A stretch of 64,000 bases of DNA from an uncultured Candidatus Saccharibacteria bacterium. GTDB lineage: Bacteria > Patescibacteriota > Minisyncoccia > Minisyncoccales > CAYUYO01. The position numbers and the translations under genes were made by a program. The stretch lies in the NCBI GenBank assembly GCA_964449385.1, contig CAYUYO010000002.1, positions 15,414 to 79,413 on the forward strand, written 5' to 3'. Below the pieces are notes generated by a model. That model was not told where the DNA came from and did no database searches. It worked only from the letters and a program-made list of their open reading frames with translations. Each line of letters starts with the position of its first letter. The first letter of the stretch is position 1. Of the stretch, positions 7,283-63,692 are shown one piece after another.

Positions 7283-7890
7283 ATTCTTAAAATTTTTGGT
7301 GGAAGAATTGTTAAGTCAATAACCATTGAAGCTTTCTCAGACAATCTCCCAGCGTTCACTATTAAATCTGGCTGATGTTTACTTTCTTTAAATTGTTGTA
7401 AAACTTTTCCAAAAATACCAGAAGAAGGTTTCCCGGAAATATTTGCTGAAGTCCCAACTAATGGCTTATTTAATTCTTCTAATAAAAAATTAATTAGCTT
7501 AAAATCAGGAATTCTGAGAGCAATAGTTTTTTTCTCAACTCCATATAATTTAATCTTAGTCTTCTTTCTTTCTAAAATAACCGTTACTTTCCCAGGCCAA
7601 ACTAATTTCAGAAATTTTTCCTGTTTTTTATCAATTTTGGCTATTTTTTTTGCCATTTTTATATCTTTTACAAAAACAGGAATAGGTTTCTTAATGCTTC
7701 GCTTTTTAATTTTAAAATTTTTCTCAACCGCTTTTTTATTTGTTGCATCGCATATCAATCCGTAAATTGTATCAGTAGGACAAATTATAACTTTTCCTTG
7801 CTTAATCGATTCTATAACTATCTTAACTGTTTTTTTAAAGTTTTTCTGATGTACTTTCAACATTTTTAAAAACAATTGAGCCTGGACCAA
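7279..7890 (-). CDS. tsaC: L-threonylcarbamoyladenylate synthase (YrdC/Sua5 domain)
   Basis: CPTDTIYGL and GTSANISG motifs. The listed start overlaps the upstream gene by 56 nt, so an internal Met (MLKVHQ..) may be the real start. Confidence 0.85.
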
Positions 7891-33822: not shown

Positions 33823-33866
33823 AGCCCATCAAAAAAATATTTTTACTTTTAAAATGGGCTTTTTTA
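33823..33866 (+). terminator. intrinsic terminator after rplT, probably bidirectional
   Basis: AGCCCAT...ATGGGCT stem around an AT-rich loop, followed by TTTTT. The T tract overlaps the stop codon of the convergent gene at 33864. Confidence 0.65.
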
Positions 33867-34067
33867 GTTTTTTATCCATTCTTCTATTTTCCCTGGATGT
33901 TTTGTCCAGAACTTTCTCCTTTCTACAAGCTCTCTAAGCTGATTTCCGTCAAAAAACTTCTTGACAAGAGAGCTTTCTCTACATTCTCCACATACTGGAC
34001 AATGGATTTCATCAAGATCAGTAACTGCTCCACAATGACTACACACTTTCCATAGTTTCTTTGTCAT
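33864..34067 (-). CDS. small zinc-ribbon protein, function unknown
   Basis: CSHCGAV..CPVCGEC four-Cys ribbon. Good AAAGGAG Shine-Dalgarno sequence about 8 nt upstream of the ATG. Confidence 0.6.
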   Translation of the reverse strand: MTKKLWKVCSHCGAVTDLDEIHCPVCGECRESSLVKKFFDGNQLRELVERRKFWTKHPGKIEEWIKN

Positions 34068-34133: not shown

Positions 34134-35078
34134 TCACTTTTTCTTTTTTAATAAAGAGATTTTTATTTCTTCCGGCAATTTCTTGGAATAGTTCAATAAT
34201 AATTCTACTGCTTTTTTAATTGTTATTTTTTCAATTTTTTGTCCAAATCCTCTAATTAAAACTGCAGGTCCTGAAAAATTTTCTGGTTCTAAAATTAAAT
34301 CTTCTTTTGCTTTAAGTTTCTTTAATTCTTTATTCTCTTTTTCGTTTCTACCTACTATGATTAAAAATCTGTTTTCCCAAAAAACTCTTCCCTTTTTTAA
34401 GACTTGTGCATCTTGACTATTACAATTAGAAATTTTATTAAAAAGTTCTTTTAGTTTTTTTGAATATTCTAAGTCGGTTAGAATACAACCACCGGCCGGG
34501 GTCGGACACCATCCACCCGCTGCTCTATCTTTTATTTTGAATTCTTTTGCTAATCTTAATTGTAATTTTCTTGACTTTCCATGAAAAGCAAATAATTCTT
34601 CTCTTTTTACTAATCCTTTTTTTTCCAGAACACTTTCGGGTAGTAATTTTGCTGAAAGCGGTCTTAAAATCAAACCCTCTAACCCAGCTTCTTTGTCCAT
34701 TTTAAGAAGAATTTTTTTTCTTTGAGAAAACGGTCTTTCATCGACAACATCACCAGTAGCTATAAAATCAAATTTATTCCCTGTAAGTTTCACGAACCGC
34801 TTTGCAGTTTTTAACATTAATAAATGACAATCAATGCAAGGATTCATTCTTTTCCCAAAACCATATTTCGGCTTTTTTATGATCTTAAAATGTTCTTTGC
34901 TAAAATCAACTATTTTTAATTTTAATTTTAATTTTTTAGCGCTCTTTTCAGCTGAATCGCAATTGAAAAAATAACTTTTGAAACAAATTGGAGTTATTTT
35001 AATTTTTTGTTTTTCTAAAATCTTAACTGCTAAAACAGAGTCTAACCCTCCAGAAAAAAGTAAAAGACCTTTTAACAT
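34134..35078 (-). CDS. PP-loop ATP pyrophosphatase, ThiI/MnmA-like tRNA sulfurtransferase family
   Basis: LLFSGGLDSVLA PP-loop, NPCIDCHLLM Cys pair, ILRPLS motif resembling ThiI. The exact subfamily is not resolved. Confidence 0.6.
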   Translation of the reverse strand: MLKGLLLFSGGLDSVLAVKILEKQKIKITPICFKSYFFNCDSAEKSAKKLKLKLKIVDFSKEHFKIIKKPKYGFGKRMNPCIDCHLLMLKTAKRFVKLTGNKFDFIATGDVVDERPFSQRKKILLKMDKEAGLEGLILRPLSAKLLPESVLEKKGLVKREELFAFHGKSRKLQLRLAKEFKIKDRAAGGWCPTPAGGCILTDLEYSKKLKELFNKISNCNSQDAQVLKKGRVFWENRFLIIVGRNEKENKELKKLKAKEDLILEPENFSGPAVLIRGFGQKIEKITIKKAVELLLNYSKKLPEEIKISLLKKKK

Positions 35079-36749: not shown

Positions 36750-38477
36750 TTATTTAAAAAATTTAAGTAATTTATCCAAAGGTTGAGTATTGATTACATC
36801 TTGTTTTTCAGCCCAGCCTCGACGAGCTTGATAAATTCCAAATTTCATATATTTTAATTGATCTTTGTGATGAAAGTCGGTATTAATTACCATTTTTACT
36901 CCAACATTTTTAGCCCTGCGAATATTCTGGTCATTTAAATCCAATCTTATTGGCTGAGAATTAATTTCTAAAATAACATTATTCTCTTTAGCTACCTGCA
37001 AGATTTTATCAAAATCAATATTACATTCCTCTCTCTCTTTTATTTTTCGAGCAGTAAGATGCGCAACAATATCAACATAAGGATTTTTCATTGCTTTAAT
37101 TATTCTTTCGGTCATTCTGTCTTTTTTCATTTTAAAACCGGAGTGAATTCCAATTATAACATAATCAAGCATTGCTAATACTTCATTTTTTATATCCAAA
37201 GACCCATTTTCCAAAATATTTACTTCAGCACTCTTTAAAATTTTAATCCCATTTATTTTTTTATTTATCTTGTCTATCTCTTTCATTTGTTTTAATAGTC
37301 TTTTTTCGTCCAGACCATTAGCTATCGGCAATTTGGAATGATCGCTTATTCCTAAATATTCATAACCCATATTTTTAGCTGCTAAAGCCATCTGTTCAAT
37401 GGTTTGTTCGCCATCACTCCAAATAGTATGGCCGTGAAGATCACCTTTAATATCTTCTATTTCTATCAGTTTTGGCAGTCCATTTGGCTTACCCTGAACC
37501 TGTTGAAGAGCAGCTTCAATTTCTCCTTGATTTTCTCTTAATTCCGGAGGTATCCAACTCATACCTAAAGCTCTATAAACCTCTTTTTCGGTTTTTCCAG
37601 CAATTTGCCTTTTTCCTCGAAAAACACCATATTCATTAAGTTTTAAATTTTTAGCAATAGCAATTTTTCTGGTAGCAATATTATGCTCTTTAGACCCGGT
37701 AAAATATTGAAGAGCCGAACCATAACTTTTTTTCGAAACAATTCTTAAATCAACATCTAATCCTTGTTTTAATCTAACCGAAGATTTAGTGGTACCTTTT
37801 CCCCAAGTTTTTATTACTCCAGGTAATCGAATAAAAAAATCCATTAATTCTTTTGGATTTTTTGTTGTCACTAAAAAATCTATGTCGCCAATAGTTTCTT
37901 TTCTTCTTCTTACCGAGCCAGCTACTGAAATCTGATTAATTTTTTTTGAAGCCTTTAACTCTTCTTCAATTTCTTCAACCATAGGTAAAATATTTCCTAA
38001 AAGAAATCTTCCTTTGCTTCTTTTTAAAAAAGTAATTCCTTCTAAAATGTTCTTCTCGGTTTTTTCATCAAAACCAAATAATGAAGCAATTTTATGGACC
38101 TTAGCTGCTTTTTCCAATTCTTTTAAATTTTTAATACCTAATTTCTGATATAAAATTTTTACTTTTTTAGGTCCTAATCCCTCAACCATAATTAGTTCTT
38201 CTATTTTTACCGGTATTTTCTTTTTAAGAATTTTATAATATTTAATTGTCCCAGTTTTTAAATACTCTTCAATCTTTTTTGCTATACTTTTGCCCACTCC
38301 TGGAATTTTTTCCAAGGATTTATTCCCTCCTTCTTTGTAAATTTCTTGAATATCTTTTTCTAAAGATTCCAAAGCAACAGCTGCTTTTCGATAAGCTGAA
38401 GGTTTAAATTGAATTTCCTCCATTTTCAAAAAATCAGCAATTTTATAAAAGATTTGAGCTATTTCCTGATTTTTCAT
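36750..38477 (-). CDS. polX: family X DNA polymerase with C-terminal PHP domain
   Basis: HhH motifs (IPGVGKSIAKKI, VEGLGPKKV), GSVRRRKETIGDIDFLV nucleotidyltransferase motif, PHP GDLHGHTIWSDG. Confidence 0.9.
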   Translation of the reverse strand: MKNQEIAQIFYKIADFLKMEEIQFKPSAYRKAAVALESLEKDIQEIYKEGGNKSLEKIPGVGKSIAKKIEEYLKTGTIKYYKILKKKIPVKIEELIMVEGLGPKKVKILYQKLGIKNLKELEKAAKVHKIASLFGFDEKTEKNILEGITFLKRSKGRFLLGNILPMVEEIEEELKASKKINQISVAGSVRRRKETIGDIDFLVTTKNPKELMDFFIRLPGVIKTWGKGTTKSSVRLKQGLDVDLRIVSKKSYGSALQYFTGSKEHNIATRKIAIAKNLKLNEYGVFRGKRQIAGKTEKEVYRALGMSWIPPELRENQGEIEAALQQVQGKPNGLPKLIEIEDIKGDLHGHTIWSDGEQTIEQMALAAKNMGYEYLGISDHSKLPIANGLDEKRLLKQMKEIDKINKKINGIKILKSAEVNILENGSLDIKNEVLAMLDYVIIGIHSGFKMKKDRMTERIIKAMKNPYVDIVAHLTARKIKEREECNIDFDKILQVAKENNVILEINSQPIRLDLNDQNIRRAKNVGVKMVINTDFHHKDQLKYMKFGIYQARRGWAEKQDVINTQPLDKLLKFFK

Positions 38478-43166: not shown

Positions 43167-43850
43167 ATGATAAATTTTGCCATTATCTTAGCTGGTGGAA
43201 AAAGTAAAAGAATGAAAAGAATTGAGAAAATCTTTTTTAAAATTAAAGGGAAGCCTTTGATTTGGTATACTTTAAAAATTTTTGAAAATCATCCACAGAT
43301 TCACAAAATAGTTTTAGTTTCCAGAAAATCTAATTTTAATAAAGTTTTTAATTTAATTAAAAAATACAAAATTCACAAAATAGCAAAAGTAGTTAAAGAA
43401 GGTAGAACTCGCCAAGATTCGGCTTTTAATGGACTGAAATATCTTGAAGAATTAGGAGCGAAACCAAAGGACTTAGTTTTATTCCATAATGGTTGTAATC
43501 CCTTAGTTTCCGCTCTTGAAATTAGTAAAGTAATTAGAGCAGCCAAAATTTATGGAGCAGCTTTAGTTGGTCAGCCCTGTAAAGATACTTTAAAGAGAGT
43601 AAATAAAAATAGATTAGTTTCAGCTACCATCGACAGATCTAATATTTATTTAGCTCAAACTCCTCAAGTGATAGAATATAGTTTAGCTAAAAAAGGGTTT
43701 AAAAAAGCTTTCTCTAAAAACTTTCAGGGAACGGACGATATCTCCCTGATAGAAAGATTAGGGAAAAAGATCAAAATGGTTCCATGCTCTTACCAAAATC
43801 TCAAAGTAACCATCAAAGAAGATTTAGAAATTATCAAAGATCTATTATAA
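43167..43850 (+). CDS. ispD: 2-C-methyl-D-erythritol 4-phosphate cytidylyltransferase
   Basis: ILAGGKSKRM nucleotide-binding loop; 227 aa; followed by ispH and ispG. Confidence 0.88.
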   Translation: MINFAIILAGGKSKRMKRIEKIFFKIKGKPLIWYTLKIFENHPQIHKIVLVSRKSNFNKVFNLIKKYKIHKIAKVVKEGRTRQDSAFNGLKYLEELGAKPKDLVLFHNGCNPLVSALEISKVIRAAKIYGAALVGQPCKDTLKRVNKNRLVSATIDRSNIYLAQTPQVIEYSLAKKGFKKAFSKNFQGTDDISLIERLGKKIKMVPCSYQNLKVTIKEDLEIIKDLL

Positions 43851-43857
43851 AAATATA

Positions 43858-44688
43858 ATGAAAATCATTTTTGCTAAAAATATTGGTTTTTGTTCAGGAG
43901 TAAAAAGAGCAATAGTTATTGCTGAAAAATCGCTAAAAGAAGACCTAAAGCCTATTCAGTTTTTAGGTCCTTTAGTCCATAATGAAAAAGTAATTGAAAA
44001 ATTAAAAAATAAAGGAGGAAAATTTGTTTCAAATTTCAAAAAAATTAAGTCTGGAACATTAATTCTCAGAGCCCACGGAGAAATTCTAAACTTCAAAAAG
44101 CTTAAAAAAAAGAAAATATTAATAAGAGATACTACTTGTCCATTAGTAAAACGAGCTCAAAATGTTGCTTATACTCTTTTTAAACAAGAATATAAAGTAA
44201 TAATTATTGGAGATAAAAAGCATTCTGAAACTAAAGGGATAAAAGAATATATTAAAAATCAAGCCATAATTATTGAAAATGAAAAAGAGGCAAAAAGATT
44301 ACCAAAGTTTAAAAAAATTGGAGTATTGGCTCAAACTACTCAAAATTTAGATAGAGTTAATCAGATTCTAAAAATCTTAAAAAACAAAACTAAAAAATTT
44401 AAATGGGTAAATACTATCTGTTCAGAAGTCTTAATTCGTCAAAAAGAATTGTCAGAAATTCTAAAGAAAGTTAATGGGGTTTTAATAATTGGTTCTCATT
44501 CCTCTGCTAATACCAAACGTCTGGTAGAAATTGTAAAAAATTCTAAAAAGCCAATTTGGTGGATAAATTCTTTAAAAGAATTAAAAAAAATAAGTTTTAA
44601 GAACCTTTCTATATTAGGAGTGGTTTCTGGAACTTCTACTCCAGATTATGAAATTAAAAAAATTAAAAAATATTTACTTAAAAAATGA
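43858..44688 (+). CDS. ispH: 4-hydroxy-3-methylbut-2-enyl diphosphate reductase
   Basis: GFCSGVKRAI, RAHG, TTCPLVKR, NTICSEV Fe-S cysteine contexts. Confidence 0.92.
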   Translation: MKIIFAKNIGFCSGVKRAIVIAEKSLKEDLKPIQFLGPLVHNEKVIEKLKNKGGKFVSNFKKIKSGTLILRAHGEILNFKKLKKKKILIRDTTCPLVKRAQNVAYTLFKQEYKVIIIGDKKHSETKGIKEYIKNQAIIIENEKEAKRLPKFKKIGVLAQTTQNLDRVNQILKILKNKTKKFKWVNTICSEVLIRQKELSEILKKVNGVLIIGSHSSANTKRLVEIVKNSKKPIWWINSLKELKKISFKNLSILGVVSGTSTPDYEIKKIKKYLLKK

Positions 44689-45749
44689 TTAAAAGAAAAA
44701 AAACAAAAATAATAAAAATTGGCAAATTAAAAATCGGAGGTAATTATCCTATTTTAGTTCAATCAATGACCAATACAGAAACTTCTAACATTAGAGCTAC
44801 AATTCGACAAATAAAAGAATTGGAAAAAGCTGGTTGTGAAATAATTAGAGTAGGTGTACCCGATTTAAAAGCTGCCAAAGCTCTTGGTAAAATCAAAAAA
44901 CAAATAAAGCTTCCTTTAGTAGCTGACATTCACTTTTCATCAGATTTAGCTATTGAAGCAATTAAGCAAGGAGTAGATAAAATCAGAATCAATCCAGGCA
45001 ATTTCCCTAAAAAAGATCTGGTGAAAATAATTGAAGCAGCTAAAAAAAAGAATATTCCAATTAGAATTGGTATTAATAGCGGATCTTTAGAAAAAGATAT
45101 TTTAGGGCAGCACAAAAGAGTAACTGCTGAAATGATGGTAAAATCTGCTTTGAGAAATATCCAACTAATGGAAAATCTCAAATTTAAAAATCTGATTATT
45201 TCATTAAAAGCCTCTGATGTTTTAAGAACAGTAAGAGCTTACGAAAAATTATCAACAAAAGTTAATTATCCTTTACATTTGGGTATTACTGAAGCAGGAA
45301 CAGAATTTTCCGGAACAATTAAATCTGCCGTTGGCCTTGGCTATTTATTATTAAAAGGGATCGGTGATACTATTAGGGTTTCTTTAACTGATGATTCGGT
45401 AAAAGAAGTAAAAGCCGGCTGGGAAATTTTAAAGAGTTTAAATTTAAGGGAAAGAGGAGTAAAAATTATTAGTTGTCCAACTTGTGCTAGATCTGAAATT
45501 GATGTGGTTAAATTCACTAAAAAAATTGAAGAATTAACCAAAGAAATAAAAAAACCATTAACTTTCGCCATAATGGGATGTATTGTTAACGGTTTAGGAG
45601 AAGCTCGAGAAGCAGATTTAGCAATAGTTGGAGTGAAGAAAGGAGCTTTAATTATAAAAAAAGGCAAAATTGTCAAAAAAGTTGAAGAAAAAAGTATTCT
45701 TAAAGAGTTTAAAAAAGTGTTAAAAAATTATTTAAAGTATTTAAAATAA
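44685..45749 (+). CDS. ispG: 4-hydroxy-3-methylbut-2-en-1-yl diphosphate synthase
   Basis: VQSMTNT, IRINPGN, ISCPTCAR and MGCIVNGLGE Fe-S motifs; 4-nt overlap with ispH. Confidence 0.93.
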   Translation: MIKRKKTKIIKIGKLKIGGNYPILVQSMTNTETSNIRATIRQIKELEKAGCEIIRVGVPDLKAAKALGKIKKQIKLPLVADIHFSSDLAIEAIKQGVDKIRINPGNFPKKDLVKIIEAAKKKNIPIRIGINSGSLEKDILGQHKRVTAEMMVKSALRNIQLMENLKFKNLIISLKASDVLRTVRAYEKLSTKVNYPLHLGITEAGTEFSGTIKSAVGLGYLLLKGIGDTIRVSLTDDSVKEVKAGWEILKSLNLRERGVKIISCPTCARSEIDVVKFTKKIEELTKEIKKPLTFAIMGCIVNGLGEAREADLAIVGVKKGALIIKKGKIVKKVEEKSILKEFKKVLKNYLKYLK

Positions 45750-47067: not shown

Positions 47068-48315
47068 TTAAAAAATAGTTGATTGGCGAGATAAATTTTT
47101 TTGCTCTTTCTTATAAAAAATCCTAACTTTACCATAAACTCCGTCGTAACCCGGCTCAACATAAACTTTTCCTTCTCTGACCCTAATTATACCTTCAGTA
47201 ATTTCTGGTGAAGTAGCTACTTTTAAGTCTTGAGATGAGATATCAAGTAGAACTTTAAATTCATTTCCAAATTTTTCAATTAGATTTTTGTATTCTTTAT
47301 CAACTCGCTTTGTCATTGATCCTACTCCTAAAACATCAGCAATAATTTCAACTAAAGGAACCAAACTTTTGAAGGGAATAAGATTTTCTGATTTAAATCC
47401 TTCTTTTTTATCAGCTAAAAAATCCACCCTATTTAGAACTCCAATTGTTAAAGGTTTCCCGCAACTTGGACAAATATTATTGTATTTTTTAGATTCTTTT
47501 GGTGATAAACTAATTTTGCAATTTCTATGGCCATCATAATAATATTTCCCTTCTTCGGGATAAAATTCAACAGTATATAAAAACTTTTTAGGATTTTTTT
47601 CTTTAATAGCTTCAATTATCGCTTGATAACTTACTTCAGTATTAAAAACATTTGCTTCACGGCCAATATGGGCAGGGCTATGAGCATCGCTGTTTGAAAT
47701 CAAAGTTACTTTTCGACCATCGGGAATTCGCCAAATCATTGCAGGGTTAGCTGATAGACCTGTTTCTAAAGCAAAAATATATTTTGAATAATCCTCAAAA
47801 CATTCTTCTATGGAATCAAAGCCGGATTTCGAACCAAATATACCAAACCAGGGAGTAAAACAATGTGCAGGAATAATTAAACAATCTTTTGAGATATTTA
47901 AAACAATCTTTACTAATTCTTTCGAATCTAATCCTAAAATCGGTCTTCCGTCGGATTTCAAACTACCAATACGACTTAAATGAGCATTAATTTTCTCTAC
48001 TATTTTAAAAGAAGGAGCAAAAATTAAATTGTGAATTTTTCTAACTCTTCCAGCTTTAGAATAAATATTAGATATTTCAACAGTTAAAATAAATCTTGTT
48101 TCTGAGTTAGAGTTTTTTAATTTAAAAAGTCCCTCTTCGGCCGGTTTTAATTTTTCTTTTAGTCCTTTTAACCATTCTGGATAGGTGAAATCCCCTGTTC
48201 CTAAAATTTTAATTCCCTTAATTTTTGCCCATTTATCTAAATTTTCTAAATCCATTTGAGGAGAAGTTGCTCTGGAATATTTACTATGAAGATGAAAATC
48301 AGCAATAAATGTCAT
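47068..48315 (-). CDS. endonuclease Q-like PHP-domain nuclease
   Basis: N-terminal ADFHLHSKYSRATS PHP motif, CPSCGKPLTIGVLNRV zinc finger, about 415 aa as in EndoQ. Confidence 0.7.
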   Translation of the reverse strand: MTFIADFHLHSKYSRATSPQMDLENLDKWAKIKGIKILGTGDFTYPEWLKGLKEKLKPAEEGLFKLKNSNSETRFILTVEISNIYSKAGRVRKIHNLIFAPSFKIVEKINAHLSRIGSLKSDGRPILGLDSKELVKIVLNISKDCLIIPAHCFTPWFGIFGSKSGFDSIEECFEDYSKYIFALETGLSANPAMIWRIPDGRKVTLISNSDAHSPAHIGREANVFNTEVSYQAIIEAIKEKNPKKFLYTVEFYPEEGKYYYDGHRNCKISLSPKESKKYNNICPSCGKPLTIGVLNRVDFLADKKEGFKSENLIPFKSLVPLVEIIADVLGVGSMTKRVDKEYKNLIEKFGNEFKVLLDISSQDLKVATSPEITEGIIRVREGKVYVEPGYDGVYGKVRIFYKKEQKNLSRQSTIF

Positions 48316-49515: not shown

Positions 49516-49791
49516 CTAAAGCTTATATACGTTATAGCCTTCCCGAACTCTTTGATCAACTTTTGTTCCAATCGAATCACCTTTTTTGGCTGTCTTTATT
49601 TTTTGATGATCAACCTCCATTGATTCAATAACCTGTTCAAAATCAGTTTCTCCACCAATAATTCTGATATTATCACCTACTTTTAAGGGAGCCGAAAGGT
49701 CAATGACGGCTACTCCAATATTGTTAAAATAATGAGAAATTTTACCTATTAATTTTCCTTCTTCAGAATTTTTAGGCTTTTTGTCTACCAT
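49516..49791 (-). CDS. small EF-Tu domain-2-like beta-barrel protein (translation elongation factor-like)
   Basis: 91 aa; VGDNIRIIG...FEQVIESMEVDHQKI..AKKGDSIG pattern resembling the translation-factor beta-barrel. Confidence 0.5.
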   Translation of the reverse strand: MVDKKPKNSEEGKLIGKISHYFNNIGVAVIDLSAPLKVGDNIRIIGGETDFEQVIESMEVDHQKIKTAKKGDSIGTKVDQRVREGYNVYKL

Positions 49792-50615: not shown

Positions 50616-50621
50616 GATTTG

Positions 50622-50693
50622 TGCCCTTAGTAGGAATCGAACCTACATTCCAAGCTCCGGAGGCCTGTACTCTATCCATTAAGTTATAAGGGC
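50622..50693 (-). tRNA. tRNA-Arg (anticodon CCG), CCA not encoded
   Basis: Reverse complement gives acceptor GCCCTTA/TAAGGGC plus A. Anticodon stem CAGGC/GCTTG with loop CTCCGGA. T arm GTAGG-TTCGATT-CCTAC. Starts 1 nt after the upstream gene stop. Confidence 0.88.
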
Positions 50694-50694
50694 A

Positions 50695-51435
50695 TTATTT
50701 TTCCGCGACTAAATAAATATTAGATTCTTTTGTTTTTGAACTCTTTAAAATTCCCTTTTTTTTAATTTTAAAATCTACCGACTGAACTATTTTTTTAAAA
50801 CCTTTTATAGTGAAATAGTGAATATATCTTTGTATAATATTGCTCCATGAAACAAAAAAATCCCCAAAATCCAGTTTTGACATGCCAAAAATTTTTAAAA
50901 TTTGATCTTTTAGAAATCCCTTTACTCTCTTTTGTTGACCAATTAAAATCATTGTTATTGGATTTAAGTTCCAAACAGTCAAAATAAAAATACCCTTAGG
51001 TTTCAAAACTCTTTTTGCTTCCTTTAAAAATTTGAGACGGAATTCTTTAGAAGGAATATGATGAAAAACCGCAAAGCTAAAAATTTTATCAAAATAATTC
51101 GAAGAAAATGGTAGACTTAAAGCATCGGCTACTTGGAAGTCTCTATTTGGATATTTTTCTTTCGCTATCTTAATCATTTTTTTAGAAATATCAACTCCGA
51201 AATATTCAACCTGCATATTTTTAAAAACTTCAAAAAATCTTCCATTTCCACAACCCAAATCTAAAATTCTATCTCCTGGACCAATATATTTTAAAAGTAG
51301 CTCTTTTCTATCTTCAGGTACATATTCCCTCGTTCTTGAAAAGTCCTCGGCAGTTAAGTTATAATCTGCTGTAGTCTTTTTAAAAAGATATTGAGCGTAT
51401 TTTTTATCCATCAATGAATATTGAAGAATTAACAA
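50695..51435 (-). CDS. class I SAM-dependent methyltransferase, Trm9/ALKBH8-MT-like
   Basis: DFSRTREYVPE..ILDLGCGNGRF, ADALSLPF, FAVFHHIPSKEFR, LTVWNL, FFVSW...RYIHYFT parallel the Trm9 blocks FSQTRYKPWP..DVGCGNGKY, ADGLNLP, AVVHH..ERR, WALEQ, VPW..RYYH. The start is probably the internal Met at 51411 (MDKKYAQ). Confidence 0.65.
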   Translation of the reverse strand: MLILQYSLMDKKYAQYLFKKTTADYNLTAEDFSRTREYVPEDRKELLLKYIGPGDRILDLGCGNGRFFEVFKNMQVEYFGVDISKKMIKIAKEKYPNRDFQVADALSLPFSSNYFDKIFSFAVFHHIPSKEFRLKFLKEAKRVLKPKGIFILTVWNLNPITMILIGQQKRVKGFLKDQILKIFGMSKLDFGDFFVSWSNIIQRYIHYFTIKGFKKIVQSVDFKIKKKGILKSSKTKESNIYLVAEK

Positions 51436-52970
51436 TCCAAGAATTAATTAAAAATAGAGCAAAAACTCCAGCTGATTTAGCTATGATTAAAAGAAAAATA
51501 GCTAAAAAATATAAAACTTCCTGCTCTTCAAATATTATCCTCTTAAAAGTTTATCATAAGATGGTCGGAAAGAAAAGATTAAAATTGTCAAAAATATTAG
51601 AAAAACTACTTCAAACCAGACCAATTCGCTCTCTTTCAGGAATCGTTAATGTTTCTGTTTTAACTTCACCCTATCCTTGTCCTGGTAAATGTATTTATTG
51701 TCCTTTTCAAAAAGGAATCCCCAAGAGTTATCTTCCCGGAGAACCAGCTGTAGAAAGAGCTAAAAGATTGGATTACAATCCTTATCAGCAAGTTAAAAAA
51801 AGAATTGAAATGCTAAAAATGGAGGGTCATCCTATTGATAAGATAGATATAAGAATTATTGGCGGAACCTGGAGTTATTATCCCAAAAAATATCAAACTT
51901 GGTTTATTACACACTGTTTTACAGCATGCAACGCAAAATATACAAGAAAAATTAAATCTTTAGAAAAAGAGCAAAAATTAAACGAAAAAGCGAAATGTCG
52001 AGTAGTTGGACTGTCAATAGAAACCAGACCGGATTTTATTACTAAAAAAGAGATTAAACATCTGAGAAAATTAGGAGTTACTCGGGTAGAAATAGGAGTT
52101 CAAAATATTTATGACGATGTTTTAGAGTTAAATAAAAGAGGCCATAACATAAAAACTACAATTAAAGCAACAAAACTTCTCAAAGATGCTGGTTTTAAAG
52201 TCTGCTATCAAATGATGCTAAATTTACCCGGTTCTAATTTAAAAAGAGATGAAAAAATGTTTGAAGAACTTTTTTCCAATTCTGATTTTCAACCCGACTT
52301 GCTAAAAATTTACCCTTGTGCCTTATTAAAACAAGCTCCTCTTTATAGATGGTGGAAAAAAGGAAAATACAAGCCCTATACTACTTCTCAACTAATAAAT
52401 CTTGTTAAATCAATTAAAAAGAAAATACCTTATTATGTCAGAATTCAAAGAATAACTAGGGATATTCCTTCTCAAGAAATCGTTGCCGGTCCGGCTAAAA
52501 TTTCTAATTTGCGCCAAATTATTGCTAAAGATTCTGAAAATGAAGATTGGGAATGCCATTGCATAAGATGTCGAGAAGTTAAAGAAAATTACAATTCAAA
52601 AGAAAAAATAAAATTATTTCGTCAAAATTATAAAGCTTCTGACGGAAAAGAAATATTTTTAAGTTTTGAAAGTAAAAATCAGGAAAAGCTTTATAGTTTA
52701 CTTCGTCTACGTATTTCTTCAGAAAATAAAGCTATTATAAGAGAAATTCATACCTATGGTAGAGCAATACCAATTTCTGAAAAAAAATCGGCCCCTCAGC
52801 ACAAAGGATTAGGTAAAAGGTTACTTAAAGAAGCAGAAAAAATAGCCAAAAAGGAATTTGGCTTAAATAAAATCAAGGTAATCTCGGGAGTTGGTGTTAG
52901 AAATTATTTTGGCAAATTAGGTTATAAATTAGAAAATACTTATATGGTTAAACATTTCGAGAAACTCTGA
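51414..52970 (+). CDS. elp3: Elp3-type radical SAM/GNAT tRNA U34 carboxymethyl-modification enzyme
   Basis: Radical SAM cluster motif PYPCPGKCIYCP, TIM-barrel middle region, C-terminal GNAT acetyl-CoA loop QHKGLGKRLLKEAEKIA; 518 aa. Confidence 0.88.
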   Translation: MNIEELTIQELIKNRAKTPADLAMIKRKIAKKYKTSCSSNIILLKVYHKMVGKKRLKLSKILEKLLQTRPIRSLSGIVNVSVLTSPYPCPGKCIYCPFQKGIPKSYLPGEPAVERAKRLDYNPYQQVKKRIEMLKMEGHPIDKIDIRIIGGTWSYYPKKYQTWFITHCFTACNAKYTRKIKSLEKEQKLNEKAKCRVVGLSIETRPDFITKKEIKHLRKLGVTRVEIGVQNIYDDVLELNKRGHNIKTTIKATKLLKDAGFKVCYQMMLNLPGSNLKRDEKMFEELFSNSDFQPDLLKIYPCALLKQAPLYRWWKKGKYKPYTTSQLINLVKSIKKKIPYYVRIQRITRDIPSQEIVAGPAKISNLRQIIAKDSENEDWECHCIRCREVKENYNSKEKIKLFRQNYKASDGKEIFLSFESKNQEKLYSLLRLRISSENKAIIREIHTYGRAIPISEKKSAPQHKGLGKRLLKEAEKIAKKEFGLNKIKVISGVGVRNYFGKLGYKLENTYMVKHFEKL

Positions 52971-56683: not shown

Positions 56684-57052
56684 TTATTTCAAAACAGATT
56701 TAATCTTGTCTATAATTTCTCCGGGAGTAAAATGGGCTTTAATTAAATAATCAGTCGCTCCTAGTTTTAATCCTTTTTCTACATCATCTCTCTGACCAAG
56801 ATTAGAAAGAATGATTACCGGAATTGAAATCAAGTTTGATTCTTTTTTCATTTGGGATAAAACTTCAAAACCATCAATACCTGGTAAAATTAAATCAAGT
56901 AAAACTAAATCCGGCTTTTCCTCTTTTATCTTTTTTATTCCCGCTTCACCATCTATTGCCTCAGAAACAACAAAGTCATCTTCTTCAAGCTTTCGAATAA
57001 TTAATTCTCTTAAAAATTTATCGTCCTCTATAACAAGAATGTTTTTTTTCAT
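56684..57052 (-). CDS. single-domain response regulator (CheY-like receiver only)
   Basis: Acidic pocket EDD, phosphoacceptor context LVLLDLILPG, conserved SN..and K (YLIKAH). No output domain. Confidence 0.9.
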   Translation of the reverse strand: MKKNILVIEDDKFLRELIIRKLEEDDFVVSEAIDGEAGIKKIKEEKPDLVLLDLILPGIDGFEVLSQMKKESNLISIPVIILSNLGQRDDVEKGLKLGATDYLIKAHFTPGEIIDKIKSVLK

Positions 57053-57053
57053 A

Positions 57054-57425
57054 TTATTTACCTATTTGTTCTACTACCTTATCAAGTACTTCTTGAGGAT
57101 CAAATTCAGTTTTAATCAGCCAATCTTTTGCCCCTAATTTTTGAGCCCTATCAAGTTCTACCGGCTGACCAGAATTAGAAACGACAATAACTGGAATTTT
57201 TTTAAATTTTTTATCTTTATTCATTTCCTCCATTACCTCAAATCCTCCCATTTTAGGCATAATAATATCTAATAAAATAAGGTTTGGGTTTTTCTTCCTC
57301 ATTTTTTCTAACCCTTCTTTTCCATCTCGGGCAACTAAGACTTCATAGCCTTCTTTGGTTAGTTTTTTCTGAAGAAGTTCAAGCATAATTTTTTCGTCCT
57401 CTATGATTAAAATTTTCTTTGTCAT
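57054..57425 (-). CDS. single-domain response regulator (CheY-like receiver only)
   Basis: IEDE, LILLDIIMPKMGG, VVSNSG, DWLIKT receiver motifs; 123 aa. No output domain. Confidence 0.9.
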   Translation of the reverse strand: MTKKILIIEDEKIMLELLQKKLTKEGYEVLVARDGKEGLEKMRKKNPNLILLDIIMPKMGGFEVMEEMNKDKKFKKIPVIVVSNSGQPVELDRAQKLGAKDWLIKTEFDPQEVLDKVVEQIGK

Positions 57426-57436
57426 ATTATTTTATT

Positions 57437-59029
57437 CTAAAACTTTTTTAAAAATTCTTCAAATTCTTTTTCCACAGGAAGGTTAAAATAGAAAGTCGTA
57501 CCTTTTTTTGGATTAGACTTAAACCAGATTTTACCGTTATGAGCTTCAATAATATTTTTAGCGATATAAAGTCCTAAGCCGGTTCCTTCGGTTTCCATCT
57601 GTACAGCATTAGCACCTCGAAAAAACTTAGTGAATATTCTTTCTTGTTGGTCTATAGAAATTCCTATCCCAGTGTCATGAATTGAGAACTCTACTTTATT
57701 TTTAACACAATCTAAAAAAAATGTCACCGTTCCCCCGACCTGGGTATATCTAATTGCATTATCTAAAAGATTACCAATAGCTACCTTCATTTTTTCTACG
57801 TCTATTTTTAATTTAGGGAATTTTTTTTGAGCTTTTTTGAATTCAAATTTAATTTTTTTTCTTTTAATTTCTCTTTGATAATAGTTTATTACAGATTGAA
57901 TTATATTTTCAATTTGAGTAAAAACAGGATTGTAAAGATATTTTCCTTCTTCAATTCTGGTAACATCTAAAAGGTCATTGATTAATGCAATCATTCTTTC
58001 GTTACTTTGATAGGTTTTTTTAATAAAATCTCTCTGTTCTTCGGTTATCTTTCCTATATCTCCGTCCAACAACATTTTTAAGGCCCATTTAATTGACGAT
58101 AAAGGGGTTCTCAATTGGTGAGCAGAGAGAGAAACAAATTCAGTTTTCATTTTTTCAACTAATTTTTCTCTGGTAATATTATGTAAAATAATTAAAGTTC
58201 CTAATTTCTCTTTCTCTCTTATTAAAGAAACGGTAGACATTTCTAAAGTTAAATCTTTTCTAACCGTTAACTCTCTTCTATAAATCTCTTTGATTTCTTT
58301 TCCTAAAATTCTTACTAAAGGACTAAACTCAGGAATTTTTGTTAACTCTAAAATTGATTTATCTATTAAATCTTTACTTTTTACTTTAAAAAACTCTTCA
58401 GCTTGAGGGTTAACTATAGAAAGATTGTTGGTTGCATCAAATACTAATAATCCATCAGCTAAATTAGTAATAACTGCTAGGGTTTTATTTTTTTCTTCTT
58501 CGGTTTTTTCCCGAGCCTCTTCTACATCTTCCAACATGTTTATTAAGGCTTTTCTTGAATCTTCTAATTCTTTGGTCCTTATCTTAACTTTCCCTTCTAA
58601 CTCTTCCCTGAATTTTTTGATTTCAGTAATATCAAATAAGGCTAAAAAATAACCGATAAAATTACCGTCTCTGTCTTTTCTTATTGAAACGGAGACATTT
58701 ACCGGAATTTCTTTTCTGTCTTTCAATATCAAAACTAATTCTTTAGTTCTTACTTTACCTCTTTTCCGAGTTAAATTTAAAAGATTTTTTATTTTTTCTT
58801 TTTCTAAAAAAATTTTTGCCAAATGCTCTCCGTTTATCTCTAAAGAATCGTATCCGGTCAAAGCTTGGAATACCTGATTGATATTAATGATGATTTCTAT
58901 CGGATTCACAGTACAAACTGCCAAGGGTAAAAAAGAGGAAAATTCTTTAATATACATTTCCAAATCACCTAAATCTTCTTTCGCTCTGTTAAGTTCTTCT
59001 TTTATTAAATTTAACTTTTCGTCAGCCAT
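57437..59029 (-). CDS. soluble PAS-PAS sensor histidine kinase
   Basis: H-box SLSAHQLRTPL, N-box LLDNAIRYT, G1 DTGIGI, G2 GTGLGLYIAK. Two PAS-like segments and an N-terminal coiled coil. No TM segment. Confidence 0.9.
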   Translation of the reverse strand: MADEKLNLIKEELNRAKEDLGDLEMYIKEFSSFLPLAVCTVNPIEIIININQVFQALTGYDSLEINGEHLAKIFLEKEKIKNLLNLTRKRGKVRTKELVLILKDRKEIPVNVSVSIRKDRDGNFIGYFLALFDITEIKKFREELEGKVKIRTKELEDSRKALINMLEDVEEAREKTEEEKNKTLAVITNLADGLLVFDATNNLSIVNPQAEEFFKVKSKDLIDKSILELTKIPEFSPLVRILGKEIKEIYRRELTVRKDLTLEMSTVSLIREKEKLGTLIILHNITREKLVEKMKTEFVSLSAHQLRTPLSSIKWALKMLLDGDIGKITEEQRDFIKKTYQSNERMIALINDLLDVTRIEEGKYLYNPVFTQIENIIQSVINYYQREIKRKKIKFEFKKAQKKFPKLKIDVEKMKVAIGNLLDNAIRYTQVGGTVTFFLDCVKNKVEFSIHDTGIGISIDQQERIFTKFFRGANAVQMETEGTGLGLYIAKNIIEAHNGKIWFKSNPKKGTTFYFNLPVEKEFEEFLKKF

Positions 59030-59030
59030 A

Positions 59031-59636
59031 TTATTCCCACTTTATTAAAAATTCATGATAAGGACTCCCATTAAACATACATTTTGTCTCCTTAATGGTA
59101 ATTTTGTCGCTCTTTATAACATACTGAGCAAATCTTAAAAAATACCCCCTATAATAAGTACACAAAATTGGATGGATTTTAAAGTTTTTTAAACGAAGTA
59201 TCCCGTATTTTTCTTTTTCATTTAATTCAATGCTTTCAAGCTCTCCAACATTATAGTGCTTTTCCCAATATTTTGGGCTTTCTTTGAAGGTCTTTTGGGT
59301 GGAAAGAAAATATTTCATCAATAACTTAACGATAAAAGAATATTTTGGAGCAGAATTGCCCATATCAAAAATTTCTTTATCGCCCCAATTAAAAGTTTCT
59401 TTTATTGCCAAAAGGGATAATACTCTAAGGCCTACAGGATACCATTCCATTGTTTCTATCTTTTCGTAATCGAATAAATCTCCCCATTCCTTGATTTTCT
59501 TTTTTAAAAGTGTGATTCCTTTTTCCCCTACCTTATTCTTTAAATATTCTATATCAGTAATAAATACTTGACCTCGCACTTTCCCGGGGACATTTATTAA
59601 TTTGGTAATTTCTCCCTGATTCATTATTTTTTTCAT
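59031..59636 (-). CDS. putative ligand-binding protein, V4R/DUF2378-like
   Basis: C-terminal pattern CTYYRGYFLRFAQ...IKETKCMFNGSPYHEFLIKW resembles the V4R/DUF2378 ending (C..G....v.E..C...G...C.F.i.W). Only 1 nt separates it from the kinase gene. Confidence 0.4.
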   Translation of the reverse strand: MKKIMNQGEITKLINVPGKVRGQVFITDIEYLKNKVGEKGITLLKKKIKEWGDLFDYEKIETMEWYPVGLRVLSLLAIKETFNWGDKEIFDMGNSAPKYSFIVKLLMKYFLSTQKTFKESPKYWEKHYNVGELESIELNEKEKYGILRLKNFKIHPILCTYYRGYFLRFAQYVIKSDKITIKETKCMFNGSPYHEFLIKWE

Positions 59637-59645
59637 ATTTATTTT

Positions 59646-60644
59646 TTAGTTTAGTTTTTTATATTCTTTTGATTTTTCAGTTAATTTTTTAATTTCCTCT
59701 TTTAAAGCAATCATTTTAAACTCTCTACCAACTGCTAACTTCTGAAATCTCTCTAAATCAGCCATTCTTTCTTGAAGCTCTTTTGTTCTTTCTTTAACTT
59801 TTATATCAAGACTTTCAGCAAGCTCTTGTAATTCTTTAGTTCGAGCATTAACTTTTATTTCAAGAATGGATTTTGCTTCCCTTAATGTCTCAGTTTTTAT
59901 TTTTAGTTCTGCCGCCATTTTATTAAAGGAATCAGCTAATAGTGCAAACTCATCTTCAGTTTTAATTTTTATTTCTACATCAAAATTTCCTTTGGCTATT
60001 TTTTCTGCTTTCTCTTTCAATAATTTAATTGGTGATATTATTTTATTAATTAGAAAAAATGCAACACTTATCCCTAAAAGAATAATTAAAATACTTATAC
60101 CTATACCAAATATAAGTGTTGCTCTAATTTGACTTGTAATTTTTTCTAATGACAATCCCACTCTGACAAAACCAATTATTTCCCCCGTTTTACCAACATT
60201 TGGAAATAATGTTTCGCTCAATAAAACAGGAGAATAAAAACTATAAATTTTTTCTCCTTCTTGAGTATAATCGGTTTTTTCCAACGCTTTTTTCTCTGTT
60301 AATAATTCTTCCATAACATTTTTAGGAATTCTTTCTTCAATTTCTATTTTTTCCTTGAAAGCAATAATATTTCCTTTCTCGTTGTAAACCACAACTAAAA
60401 CAATACTTTCTTCTTCGAAAGTTTTTTGAAAAGATGTTTGGAGTAAAATAGGATCCTCTGAACTTAAAGCAAGTTCTGAACCATAGGACATATCTTTTAC
60501 CAAATGAAAACCAAAATCTGTCAGGTCCTCTTTTATGAATTGAGTTAATTGATAAATATGAAAAGTTAAGAAAGCTGAAGCAACACAAAAAATCAAAAAA
60601 AATATATAAACAATAAACTTTGTCTTAATACTTTTTAAATACAT
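59646..60644 (-). CDS. membrane sensor protein: TM, extracytoplasmic domain, TM, HAMP, coiled coil; no catalytic output
   Basis: Two TM helices (aa 10-28, 176-200). HAMP segment PIKLLKEKAEKIAKGNFDVEI..DEFALLADSFNKMAAEL. Duplicated IKVxxRTKELQE coiled-coil unit encoded at 59769-59861. Confidence 0.75.
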   Translation of the reverse strand: MYLKSIKTKFIVYIFFLIFCVASAFLTFHIYQLTQFIKEDLTDFGFHLVKDMSYGSELALSSEDPILLQTSFQKTFEEESIVLVVVYNEKGNIIAFKEKIEIEERIPKNVMEELLTEKKALEKTDYTQEGEKIYSFYSPVLLSETLFPNVGKTGEIIGFVRVGLSLEKITSQIRATLIFGIGISILIILLGISVAFFLINKIISPIKLLKEKAEKIAKGNFDVEIKIKTEDEFALLADSFNKMAAELKIKTETLREAKSILEIKVNARTKELQELAESLDIKVKERTKELQERMADLERFQKLAVGREFKMIALKEEIKKLTEKSKEYKKLN

Positions 60645-60747
60645 CGAAAATTATTCTATCATAAAATATTAAAATTTCTAAACTCAAATTCTCACTTCAT
60701 TTTAAAGTTTTCTTTTTTTTTATTTTAATAATAAATAATTTCGTAAT

Positions 60748-62136
60748 CTAATCTTTACTAAAAATTAATATTGAGGCTGTCACTTCTCCGTATTTATTCC
60801 CTATTCCAACAAAATGTCCGTATGGTCCTAAATTAGACACTCCTAAGAAAGGATTGTCTCCCACAGCCAAAACAATTTTAGAAACCATTTCGTCCCACCC
60901 CTCTGGGTCACCAATACCTAATAAAGTTCCTCCACATTGATCCAATACTGCTCCAGCAATTTCTTTTTCAGTAATTCCTCCTCTACTTTGAGCTAATTTA
61001 ACAGCCAAGGCAGCTCTTTGGATAAATAATTCTGGATTACTTTCTAATAAATACAATTCTGTTCCTTCCTCAGCTACTGCTCCAACAGTTATACTATTGT
61101 CTGGATTAAAATGGAAAGGAACTATCATTTGCCAATTAGAAAATCCATCAGTCTCAATCATCTTCTTTCCAAAAGTATGGTTAACAGCTTCGGCTAAAAT
61201 CATTTCTGAAGTGCCCAAATATTTATCAAAAAAACCATCAAGCCAGTTGTTATATACTATAGCCGCCGGTTTGTTATCAATCTCAACAATATTAAGTCCT
61301 TCGTCATCTCTTCTAAATTTAGTTACTATTCCTTTCTGACCAGTTTGATTAAATCCTGAAAGAAAAGCATGACCAACTTTTAAATCGGTATAAATAGGAG
61401 CTACTACTATTCCCCTCGAATATACTTTATTATTAGCAAATAATGCTTCACCTCCACTAACAAGATCTGAGTAGCCAGCAGTAGCTCCACCACCAACTAT
61501 CAGAATATCTTTACCCAAGACACTCTCTATCCCTTTTATAACCATCTCCTCTCCTATTCCAAAAGGGGAACTACTCATAAGCACTACTTTAGGTAAATCT
61601 TTTATAGTTTTCCCGGCATTTTCAATTGCTTTAATAATAGCTACTTTCCCTGCCTCTTCAGACGAAACTACTTCGTCCAAATTACAAGCACCTACCCCAA
61701 AAATCATTTCCTCAGAAGAAAATCCCATTAAGCTTAACACGTTCCCTTCTTCAACTTTCTCTCCAATATGAAAACCACTATTGGTCATTATCCCCATTAA
61801 GGAAGTAGAACCATAAATTTTAGTGTTAGGAAGAAGCTGATTTACTTCTGCTAAAATTTCGTCTTGGTTGTAACCTACTGTAGAAGTAAGAATGGCGAAA
61901 ACAGGTTCTTCTCCTTTTAATTGTTCAACCATCTTAGTATATGCTTCTTGAACTGCTTCTTTTTCGTTTTTCTCAACGCTATAACCTATCCCCATTTCCA
62001 ATTTAACTTCAATTTCCTCTTCGATTGGAGTAATAAATTCTTCTACTGTTATATTTTTATTTACTAAAACCACAGTAACAATTACTCCAATTACTATTAT
62101 TATCCCCAATATTATCCAATATATTTTATTTTTCAT
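60748..62136 (-). CDS. FIST-domain sensor protein with N-terminal membrane anchor
   Basis: N-terminal hydrophobic helix, then a FIST_N-like segment (PVFAILTSTVGYNQDEILAEV..IYGSTSLMGIMT) and a FIST_C-like C-terminal half. Confidence 0.6.
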   Translation of the reverse strand: MKNKIYWIILGIIIVIGVIVTVVLVNKNITVEEFITPIEEEIEVKLEMGIGYSVEKNEKEAVQEAYTKMVEQLKGEEPVFAILTSTVGYNQDEILAEVNQLLPNTKIYGSTSLMGIMTNSGFHIGEKVEEGNVLSLMGFSSEEMIFGVGACNLDEVVSSEEAGKVAIIKAIENAGKTIKDLPKVVLMSSSPFGIGEEMVIKGIESVLGKDILIVGGGATAGYSDLVSGGEALFANNKVYSRGIVVAPIYTDLKVGHAFLSGFNQTGQKGIVTKFRRDDEGLNIVEIDNKPAAIVYNNWLDGFFDKYLGTSEMILAEAVNHTFGKKMIETDGFSNWQMIVPFHFNPDNSITVGAVAEEGTELYLLESNPELFIQRAALAVKLAQSRGGITEKEIAGAVLDQCGGTLLGIGDPEGWDEMVSKIVLAVGDNPFLGVSNLGPYGHFVGIGNKYGEVTASILIFSKD

Positions 62137-63236: not shown

Positions 63237-63692
63237 TTATTGTATTGTAATTTTTCTAGTCTTTTGATCAATAAATTTAAATTTCAAAATTATTGTTGTT
63301 TTAGGAAGCATTTTTTGGACCATATCAGCCCACTCAATAGTAATAATATTCTTAGGATTAGAGACAATCTCTTTAAATCTCAAAGCAAGTAATTCTTTTG
63401 TTTTTTTTATCCTATAACAATCAATATGATAAAAAGTATTATATGTGTTACCTATGACACTTTGCGGGATTTCAAACTTCTTCATTATTACGAATGTGGG
63501 GCTTAAAATTTTTTCTTTTATTTTTAGCTCCTTGGCAAACCCTTGTAAAAATGTTGTTTTTCCTCCTCCTAAATCTCCTTCTAGGCCAATAACTAAAGCT
63601 GTTTTTCTGTCTTTAGTTTTTAAAGACTCCCTGGCTAAAATCTCTCCTAATTTTTTGGTTTGAAGAGGATTAGTAGTTATATAATTAAACAT
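63237..63692 (-). CDS. tsaE: tRNA t6A biosynthesis ATPase TsaE
   Basis: Walker A LEGDLGGGKTTF, SPTF, HIDCYR motifs of YjeE/TsaE. Confidence 0.9.
   Translation of the reverse strand: MFNYITTNPLQTKKLGEILARESLKTKDRKTALVIGLEGDLGGGKTTFLQGFAKELKIKEKILSPTFVIMKKFEIPQSVIGNTYNTFYHIDCYRIKKTKELLALRFKEIVSNPKNIITIEWADMVQKMLPKTTIILKFKFIDQKTRKITIQ

Follow-up and report, generated by a model that had tools for sequence, protein, structure and literature searches.

We analysed a divergent gene pair in a 64-kb stretch of DNA from contig CAYUYO010000002.1 (the whole stretch is called the window below), in which a predicted Elp3 gene lies head to head with a gene for a predicted Trm9-like methyltransferase. The Elp3 open reading frame (ORF) occupies 51414..52970 on the plus strand (518 aa), and the divergent methyltransferase ORF occupies 50695..51435 on the minus strand, where it reads 246 aa from a TTG codon or 238 aa from the ATG at 51411. 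Both ORFs lie where a first-pass annotation of the sequence had put them, and every peptide block that it quoted is present in the translations: DFSRTREYVPE, ILDLGCGNGRF, ADALSLPF, FAVFHHIPSKEFR, LTVWNL, FFVSW, and RYIHYFT in the methyltransferase, and CPGKCIYCP (C89/C93/C96) and QHKGLGKRLLKEAEKIA (aa 462-478) in Elp3. It had also given the start codons as 2 nt apart when the Met at 51411 is used, and the junction indeed reads CAT-CA-ATG, with a 2-nt spacer (51412..51413) between the two ATG codons. We consider the ATG at 51411 to be the real start of the methyltransferase because the family alignment (24 members) opens at this Met, which is nearly invariant as M1, and because independent gene calls in other assemblies of the same organism give products of 238 aa and 518 aa that are 2 nt apart. 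The in-frame, TTG-initiated extension (51412..51435, minus strand), upstream of the Met at which homologues start and gene callers begin the 238-aa product, is probably untranslated. The host is bacterial, as the window encodes tmRNA/SmpB, ribosomal protein S20, DNA polymerase III delta, and a Mur ligase, along with TsaD/TsaE/Sua5 and several aminoacyl-tRNA synthetases. Its low G+C and its gene content are those typical of Patescibacteria (Candidate Phyla Radiation, CPR), and the nearest named relatives of the methyltransferase come from Nealsonbacteria, Paceibacteria, and Portnoybacteria.

By homology, the plus-strand ORF is a full-length Elp3 with radical-SAM (S-adenosylmethionine) and GNAT/KAT domains, and it is predicted to be a tRNA carboxymethyl synthase that forms 5-carboxymethyluridine (cm5U) at U34. 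The identity proposed in the first pass is upheld by the curated model TIGR01211 (ELP3), which the protein passes with 557.9 bits (cutoff 350), with aa 8-514 aligned to model positions 3-521 of 522. Pfam matched Radical_SAM (70.9 bits) and Radical_SAM_C, while its Acetyltransf_1 match at aa 462-504 was weak and slightly below the cutoff (19.9 vs 20.7 bits); the GNAT/KAT region nevertheless aligns within TIGR01211 and with all solved Elp3 structures, up to aa 513-515. Solved Elp3 structures from the three domains of life match the protein at 1e-130 to 1e-99, including those of M. infernus (MinElp3, 1e-130), Dehalococcoides mccartyi (DmcElp3, 9e-111), and eukaryotes (9e-103). Direct reading of the sequence places the radical-SAM [4Fe-4S] motif CPGKCIYC (C89-x3-C93-x2-C96) at 51678..51701, within YPCPGKCIYCPF, and the GNAT acetyl-CoA-binding loop QHKGLGKRLLKEAEKIA, which begins with QHKGLGKRLL (aa 462-471) and falls inside the full-length TIGR01211 match, at 52797..52847 (both on the plus strand). 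A Cys trio (C381/C383/C386, CHCIRC; 52554..52571, plus strand) is similar in kind to the Zn-binding cysteines that are conserved in bacterial and archaeal Elp3 (PMC6367351).

The first 75 residues (51414..51638, plus strand) form a basic extension with 19 K/R against 5 D/E. Eukaryotic Elp3 aligns to the protein from aa 17, and DmcElp3 not before aa 71. Such N-terminal extensions aid tRNA binding in archaeal and eukaryotic Elp3 and are missing from DmcElp3 (PMC6367351; PMC7663514), and the N-terminus encoded here resembles the tRNA-binding one of the archaeal and eukaryotic enzymes. The best solved-structure match is MinElp3 (PDB 6IAD/6IA8; 440 bits, E 1e-130, query aa 59-513), which differs in that its host is archaeal and in that it leaves the first 58 residues unaligned. 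Like the protein studied here, archaeal Elp3 (M. infernus, M. jannaschii) stands alone, without Elp1/2/4/5/6, and combines radical-SAM and KAT domains with a basic N-terminal extension. The studied bacterial enzyme, DmcElp3 (PDB 5L7J), also stands alone and scores 374 bits, but its N-terminus is far shorter, with the window protein retaining about 70 additional basic N-terminal residues; DmcElp3 binds tRNA weakly and has weak activity (PMC7663514). By score and architecture, the window Elp3 thus resembles the archaeal enzymes more closely than DmcElp3. Elp3 was historically annotated as a histone acetyltransferase, a name that PDB entries retain, and one could therefore picture it as mainly a protein lysine acetyltransferase, or another radical-SAM enzyme without a role in tRNA, with the methyltransferase sharing its non-tRNA target. 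We regard this as hardly credible, given that Elp3 of all three domains hydrolyses acetyl-CoA only when triggered by tRNA, with histone peptides, tubulin peptides, and other nucleic acids having no such effect (PMC6367351), and given that its partner is Trm9-like.

For the methyltransferase, the curated libraries (Pfam, NCBIfam) returned only generic names of the Methyltransf_11 type, and we therefore tested the relationship to Trm9, which the first-pass annotation had claimed, in five ways. In hhalign comparisons, the CPR methyltransferase family aligned with a fungal Trm9 profile over 200 columns (99.95%, E 1.6e-37) and with the single Yarrowia Trm9 (YlTrm9) over 199 columns (E 4.2e-24). E. 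coli CmoM (SmtA), a bacterial methyltransferase that esterifies the uridine-5-oxyacetic acid cmo5U34 to mcmo5U34, reached just E 2.3e-11 over 133 core columns. CmoM shares with the window protein a Pfam family and an analogous reaction, a carboxyl methyl ester on the U34 side chain; it differs in that only the Rossmann core aligns (29 bits in BLASTP), with no aligned His-His dyad, lid, or C-terminal Asn, and we rejected it as the identity of the methyltransferase. We also built a fungal Trm9 hidden Markov model (HMM) from 120 fungal Trm9 sequences, collected with a YlTrm9 sequence that was rebuilt from the PDB alignment, and ran it on all ORFs encoded in the window and in 80 related loci. The window methyltransferase scored 80 bits and the CPR proteins 73-119 bits, mostly near full length, compared to 97-112 bits for haloarchaeal Trm9 relatives, 120-131 bits for Heimdallarchaeota, and 20-42 bits, in the core only, for generic methyltransferases recovered by the same locus search. 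The scores of the CPR proteins thus equal those of haloarchaeal relatives of the validated Haloferax volcanii Trm9 (HvoTrm9).

A PDB search with the family profile gave YlTrm9 (5cm2_Z; E 7.9e-22, profile positions 26-219) as the top-scoring match among proteins of known function. PH0226, an uncharacterised archaeal methyltransferase, was the nearest PDB sequence by raw score, slightly above Trm9, and single-sequence PDB searches, which it also topped, yielded only matches of the generic Methyltransf_11 type; we did not take PH0226 to define the family because it aligns in the core only, without the HH and W residues. The blocks of yeast Trm9 that had been quoted in the first pass agree with a consensus of 20 fungal Trm9 sequences (HFSSTRYKPWP, LDVGCGNGKY, SIAVIHHLSTPERR, VWALEQ, VPW, and RYYHLY). 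Compared with the eukaryotic Trm9/ALKBH8 domain (YlTrm9-Trm112, PDB 5CM2; Saccharomyces cerevisiae Trm9, ScTrm9), the window methyltransferase is 27-30% identical over its full length and has in common the class I fold, the βA/βB lid, and the FSxTR, HH, W, W, RYxH, and N residues, whereas it differs in the replacement of Y243, an insertion of about 20 residues before the lid, and charged or polar residues at Trm112-interface positions. The family comprises 942 clusters at 50% identity (E ≤ 1e-30), and certain automated Joint Genome Institute (JGI) annotations already name its members TRM9 (e.g. P0120).

Mutagenesis of ScTrm9 has shown that H116, W145, W168, and Y243 are needed for activity, H116 being crucial, and that R29, R241, N271, and H115 contribute to a lesser extent, with R29A reducing activity (PMC4678810). 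In residue alignments that took in CPR, other bacteria, archaea, and fungi, ScTrm9 R29, H115, H116, W145, W168, R241, and N271 map to R28, H117, H118, W147, W189, R195, and N231 of the window protein, and each of these seven is kept in 22-24 of 24 CPR members as well as in the archaeal and fungal groups. On the minus strand, R28 (YlTrm9 R40) ends the FSRTR motif (aa 24-28; 51328..51342), and its equivalent is present throughout alignment A2 and, in the counted set, in 23/24 CPR, 20/20 fungal, and 6/6 haloarchaeal sequences. The SAM-binding motif I, LDLGCGNG (aa 50-57; 51241..51264), has invariant D51, G53, C54, G55, N56, and G57. The His-His dyad H117/H118 (YlTrm9 H126/H127) is encoded at 51058..51063, which reads ATGATG on the plus strand, and W147 (YlTrm9 W156), at 50971..50973, is invariant in all groups compared. 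N231 (YlTrm9 N222; 50719..50721) is invariant in alignment A2 and found in 22/24 CPR sequences.

Mapping and an AlphaFold model (predicted local distance difference test, pLDDT, 94.5) also point to a two-strand lid at aa 184-198 (D184, W189, R195, Y196, I197, H198; 50818..50862, minus strand), whose residues have their counterparts in ScTrm9 W168, R241, Y242, Y243, and H244. The modelled strands (184-189 and 193-198) lie between β5 (136-147) and a helix (202-210), and in Trm9 a two-stranded βA/βB lid is described between β5 and helix αE (PMC4678810); we take the predicted element to be this lid. The stretch from W147 to D184 measures about 36 residues in the CPR family and about 17 in fungi, and the model places two extra helices (151-156 and 160-174) in this CPR insertion of about 20 residues. 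A Foldseek search of the PDB with the model ranked 5cm2_Z second, with the highest target-normalised TM-score (0.83), which was not clearly separated from the rest; this comparison does not discriminate because class I methyltransferases all score alike (1e-13 to 1e-16). Together, the full-length profile match, the catalytic residues, the lid, and HMM scores above those of generic methyltransferases and CmoM group the protein with Trm9, in agreement with the first-pass claim that it is not generic. We conclude from these comparisons that it is Trm9-like, far beyond chance resemblance. In combination with the synteny described below, we annotate 50695..51411 (minus strand, 238 aa) as a Trm9-like class I SAM methyltransferase, predicted to convert cm5U34 to its methyl ester 5-methoxycarbonylmethyluridine (mcm5U34) as a carboxyl methyltransferase.

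To follow the pair in relatives, we scanned one genome per species, found at least 449 stretches that code for methyltransferase relatives, and retained the best 80 loci. Elp3 lay within 6 kb of the methyltransferase in 54 of 78 of these loci, all found via the methyltransferase. In 36 loci the two genes diverged from extrapolated starts no more than 150 nt apart (often -8 to +37 nt), and in eight more they diverged at 200-900 nt; in L033 (Gracilibacteria) and L048 (Crenarchaeota) they were neighbours that share a strand. In four CPR-like loci without Elp3 (L003, L030, L036, L073), the contig ends upstream of the methyltransferase. Starting instead from the window Elp3, we scanned metagenomes and obtained 32 loci, 26 of which contained the Elp3 5' end and upstream DNA. 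In 24 of these 26, the methyltransferase was divergent and upstream, with gaps of -5 to +110 nt, and the two exceptions were the most distant Elp3 relatives (40-41% identity). The pair is therefore syntenic in relatives when approached from either gene. Linked pairs were found mostly in lineages labelled Patescibacteria, in dozens of species-level genomes, and also in genomes labelled Anaerolineae/Anaerolineales, a Myxococcales metagenome-assembled genome (MAG), and a Thermoanaerobaculia MAG; they also occur in third-party MAGs labelled 'Gammaproteobacteria' or 'Pseudomonadales', labels that call for caution. The statement in the first-pass annotation that bacterial Elp3 homologues are rare is thus overstated, as the pair is present in dozens of Patescibacteria genomes and in some genomes labelled as other bacteria.

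When all ORFs within ±6 kb were clustered, Elp3 was the sole broadly conserved neighbour of the methyltransferase, and no third conserved partner gene was found among these neighbours. No other neighbour was present in more than 15 loci, and the next commonest ones have the appearance of local synteny in a subset of loci. One of them is a 91-aa protein (49516..49791, minus strand) with a weak EF-Tu domain-2-like barrel, whose gene is the second one downstream from the methyltransferase. Present close to the pair in 15 related loci, it is second only to Elp3 in frequency, probably through local synteny in a subset of loci. The back-to-back starts tie the two genes together in inheritance, and probably also in expression. 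The recurrent adjacency bears on the view that a generic Methyltransf_11 enzyme, acting on an unrelated small molecule, lipid, or protein, happens to be encoded beside Elp3. This view draws on the generic Pfam and NCBIfam names and on the uncharacterised methyltransferases among the top PDB matches, but it would have to account for an association that spans many lineages in both search directions and for a full-length Trm9 alignment that includes a lid and active-site residues absent from generic relatives. We consider it very improbable and already largely refuted.

Together, these observations make it probable that Elp3 and the methyltransferase constitute, in a bacterium of the Patescibacteria (CPR), a two-step wobble-uridine pathway of the kind that archaea and eukaryotes use. 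In the first step, Elp3 alone, as in archaea and Dehalococcoides, would carboxymethylate C5 of U34 to give cm5U34, by means of the radical-SAM [4Fe-4S] cluster at C89/C93/C96 and the GNAT domain that binds acetyl-CoA, with the basic N-terminal extension helping to bind the tRNA. In the second step, the Trm9-like methyltransferase would use SAM to methyl-esterify the carboxylate to mcm5U34, with the carboxylate held by the Trm9-equivalent residues R28, H117/H118, W147, W189, R195, and N231; the product would be the 2-thiolated mcm5s2U34 if a 2-thiolase also acts. This is the likeliest explanation of the homology, active-site conservation, predicted fold, and synteny of the pair, and from it we infer the chemistry, the tRNA substrates, independence of Trm112, and co-regulation.

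Each step has precedents outside bacteria. Archaeal Elp3 is cited in a 2020 review as making cm5U by itself in vitro (PMC7663514), the genes for Elp3 and a Trm9 homologue were reported in 2008 to cluster in S. solfataricus (PMC2584109), and yeast Trm9-Trm112 esterifies cm5U to mcm5U (PMC4678810). In H. volcanii, mcm5U was demonstrated in 2018, and HvoTrm9 makes it together with Trm112 (PMC6144793). Archaeal Trm9 (HVO_1032 and the S. solfataricus homologue) follows the same two-enzyme logic without the other Elongator subunits. The arrangement of the genes differs: the pair is adjacent but on the same strand in the Crenarchaeota MAG locus mentioned above, unlike the head-to-head pair of the window, and haloarchaeal Trm9 genes stand apart from Elp3, as do the Trm9-like genes of Heimdallarchaeota. 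For bacteria, the 2020 review describes Elp3 as confined to Dehalococcoides (PMC7663514), and a 2026 paper merely states that Elp3 is present in 'numerous bacteria'. Literature searches on Elp3 in Patescibacteria, the Candidate Phyla Radiation, or Parcubacteria returned no paper on a bacterial Elp3-Trm9 pair, and searches on tRNA modification, CPR, and MnmE/MnmG gave nothing on the pair in titles or abstracts. With E. coli queries, tblastn found no match to MnmE or MnmG in the window and the 80 loci (1.09 Mb), a result that says little because about 1-2% of each genome was sampled.

Eukaryotic and haloarchaeal Trm9 require the activator Trm112, and the question of such a partner belongs to several points that weigh against a Trm9-type pathway in this bacterium, beside the generic library names and the slightly higher raw score of PH0226 given above. 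HvoTrm9 depends on Trm112 (PMC6144793). No Trm112-like ORF (PF03966 or YcaR-like) was found in the window or the 80 related loci, which make up a small part of each genome, when small window ORFs were searched with Pfam and phmmer with E. coli YcaR was run on all window and locus ORFs of 35 aa or more. A 67-aa Zn-ribbon protein (33864..34067) was considered as Trm112 and rejected, as it is not PF03966. Three of the six hydrophobic positions at which YlTrm9 contacts Trm112 (V59, F78, V102) are occupied in the CPR family by K/R, D/E, and Q; haloarchaeal Trm9 relatives are likewise polar at position 78, although HvoTrm9 binds Trm112. These features hint that the CPR methyltransferase may be a Trm112-independent variant, soluble and active by itself. 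A further point concerns ScTrm9 Y243 (YlTrm9 Y194): replacing it with Ala strongly impairs the enzyme (PMC4678810), and the window methyltransferase has I197 in its place. In the CPR family this position holds V in nine, I in five, F in five, Y in four, and Q in one sequence, and it is Tyr throughout the fungi, haloarchaea, and other archaea. The missing conserved Tyr, together with the two-helix insertion before the lid, suggests that the enzyme is a Trm9 variant. Finally, the 2020 review states that there is no direct evidence of xcm5U34 derivatives in bacteria (PMC7663514).

The same departures from Trm9 could be read to mean that the pair acts on U34 and that its end product is something other than plain mcm5U: the methyl ester might be converted further into another derivative, or the methyltransferase might modify some other side chain that depends on Elp3. 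Variation at the Y243 position and the CPR-specific insertion ahead of the lid could reflect altered substrate recognition, and downstream chemistry in this pathway is flexible, since cm5U is turned into other structures in H. volcanii when Trm9 is absent (PMC6144793). We find this unlikely, as all other carboxylate-binding and catalytic residues are conserved and no third conserved gene accompanies the pair, and we retain mcm5U34 as the predicted product.

With respect to the possible s2U34 step, we noted a 314-aa protein (34134..35078, minus strand) that joins a distant PP-loop ATPase N-terminus (MnmA/tRNA_Me_trans, E ~1e-6) to a C-terminal NFACT-R_2 RNA-binding domain. It could be a thiolase-type enzyme acting on RNA or tRNA; the similarity is weak, and we rejected it as a bona fide MnmA.

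The close spacing of the two starts is not confined to the window. With the starts of the relatives estimated from tblastn coordinates rather than from junction sequences, a start-to-start gap of -2 nt recurs in five genome loci (L004, L006, L007, L011, L012) and in the metagenome loci L088, L089, L091-L093, L096, L098, and L104. A gap of -2 nt would put both start codons in a shared CATG palindrome, with zero intergenic DNA. Because the starts touch, the upstream region of each gene lies inside the other gene, which would place its promoter and ribosome-binding region there unless its transcripts are leaderless. The first-pass claim that each promoter lies within the partner gene thus follows from the geometry, and its support from promoter sequence amounts to a single good sigma-70-like match. 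This candidate promoter (TTGAAA-18-TATAAT, 11/12; 51336..51365, plus strand), the best match in our promoter scan, falls within the coding sequence of the methyltransferase, 49 nt ahead of the Elp3 ATG; across the region, the number of sigma-70-like matches was not above the shuffled expectation (13 vs 10.7). Starts that share a CATG, if confirmed, raise the question of whether such divergent genes use embedded promoters or leaderless mRNAs.

At the other end of the methyltransferase, a tRNA-Arg(CCG) gene (50621..50693) begins 1 nt past the stop codon on the same strand. The same tRNA follows the methyltransferase in eight close relatives (L001, L002, L004, L006, L009, L010, L011, L014), with its start some 5 to 450 nt beyond the methyltransferase match, and tRNA-Ser(CGA) takes its place in L012. 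The methyltransferase and tRNA-Arg(CCG) may be co-transcribed. Neither tRNA is a substrate of Elp3, because both have C34.

The window contains further genes related to translation. The bacterial genes for N6-threonylcarbamoyladenosine at position 37 (t6A37), TsaD, Sua5/TsaC, and TsaE, lie at 6221..7890 and 63237..63692 (minus strand), and a bacterial-type t6A pathway is therefore encoded beside the predicted archaeal/eukaryotic-type U34 pathway. In a 1158-aa isoleucyl-tRNA synthetase (26814..30290, minus strand; TIGR00392, 890 bits), the synthetase match is split in two by a complete histidine-phosphatase domain (PF00300, 3.8e-36) at aa 489-663; the inserted domain is nearest to the alpha-ribazole phosphatase and phosphoglycerate mutase types, and such an insertion is unusual for an aminoacyl-tRNA synthetase. 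Other genes include those for the isoprenoid enzymes of the methylerythritol phosphate (MEP) pathway IspD, LytB/IspH, and GcpE/IspG, which stand side by side (43167..45749, plus strand) in this small-genome bacterium, a family X DNA polymerase with Pol beta thumb/palm, HHH, and PHP domains (36750..38477, minus strand), and, separately, a PHP-domain protein of the TIGR00375 family (47068..48315, minus strand). A signalling cluster (56684..62136, minus strand) encodes two single-domain response regulators, a PAS histidine kinase, and V4R-like, HAMP-domain, and FIST-domain proteins.

The chemistry that forms xm5U34 is usually taken as a marker of the domain of life, with MnmE/MnmG in bacteria and Elp3/Elongator in archaea and eukaryotes. 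The pair described here does not represent a new kind of system; it is orthologous to a known two-enzyme pathway and stands in a domain of life where that pathway was not expected. The conserved Elp3-Trm9 module across many CPR lineages predicts that mcm5U is present in bacteria. We tentatively suggest that many Patescibacteria/CPR, and scattered members of other phyla, might decode with mcm5U34 (possibly mcm5s2U34) made by a stand-alone Elp3 and a Trm112-free Trm9 that replace MnmE/MnmG. If true, this would be the first bacterial mcm5U pathway and another translation-related trait common to CPR bacteria and archaea. The pair also offers small, stand-alone, and possibly Trm112-independent enzymes for structural and mechanistic study, and a better name for hundreds of genes that are labelled 'class I SAM-dependent methyltransferase' or 'UbiE'. 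Within the translation apparatus, it provides a concrete marker of gene exchange or shared ancestry between CPR bacteria and archaea.

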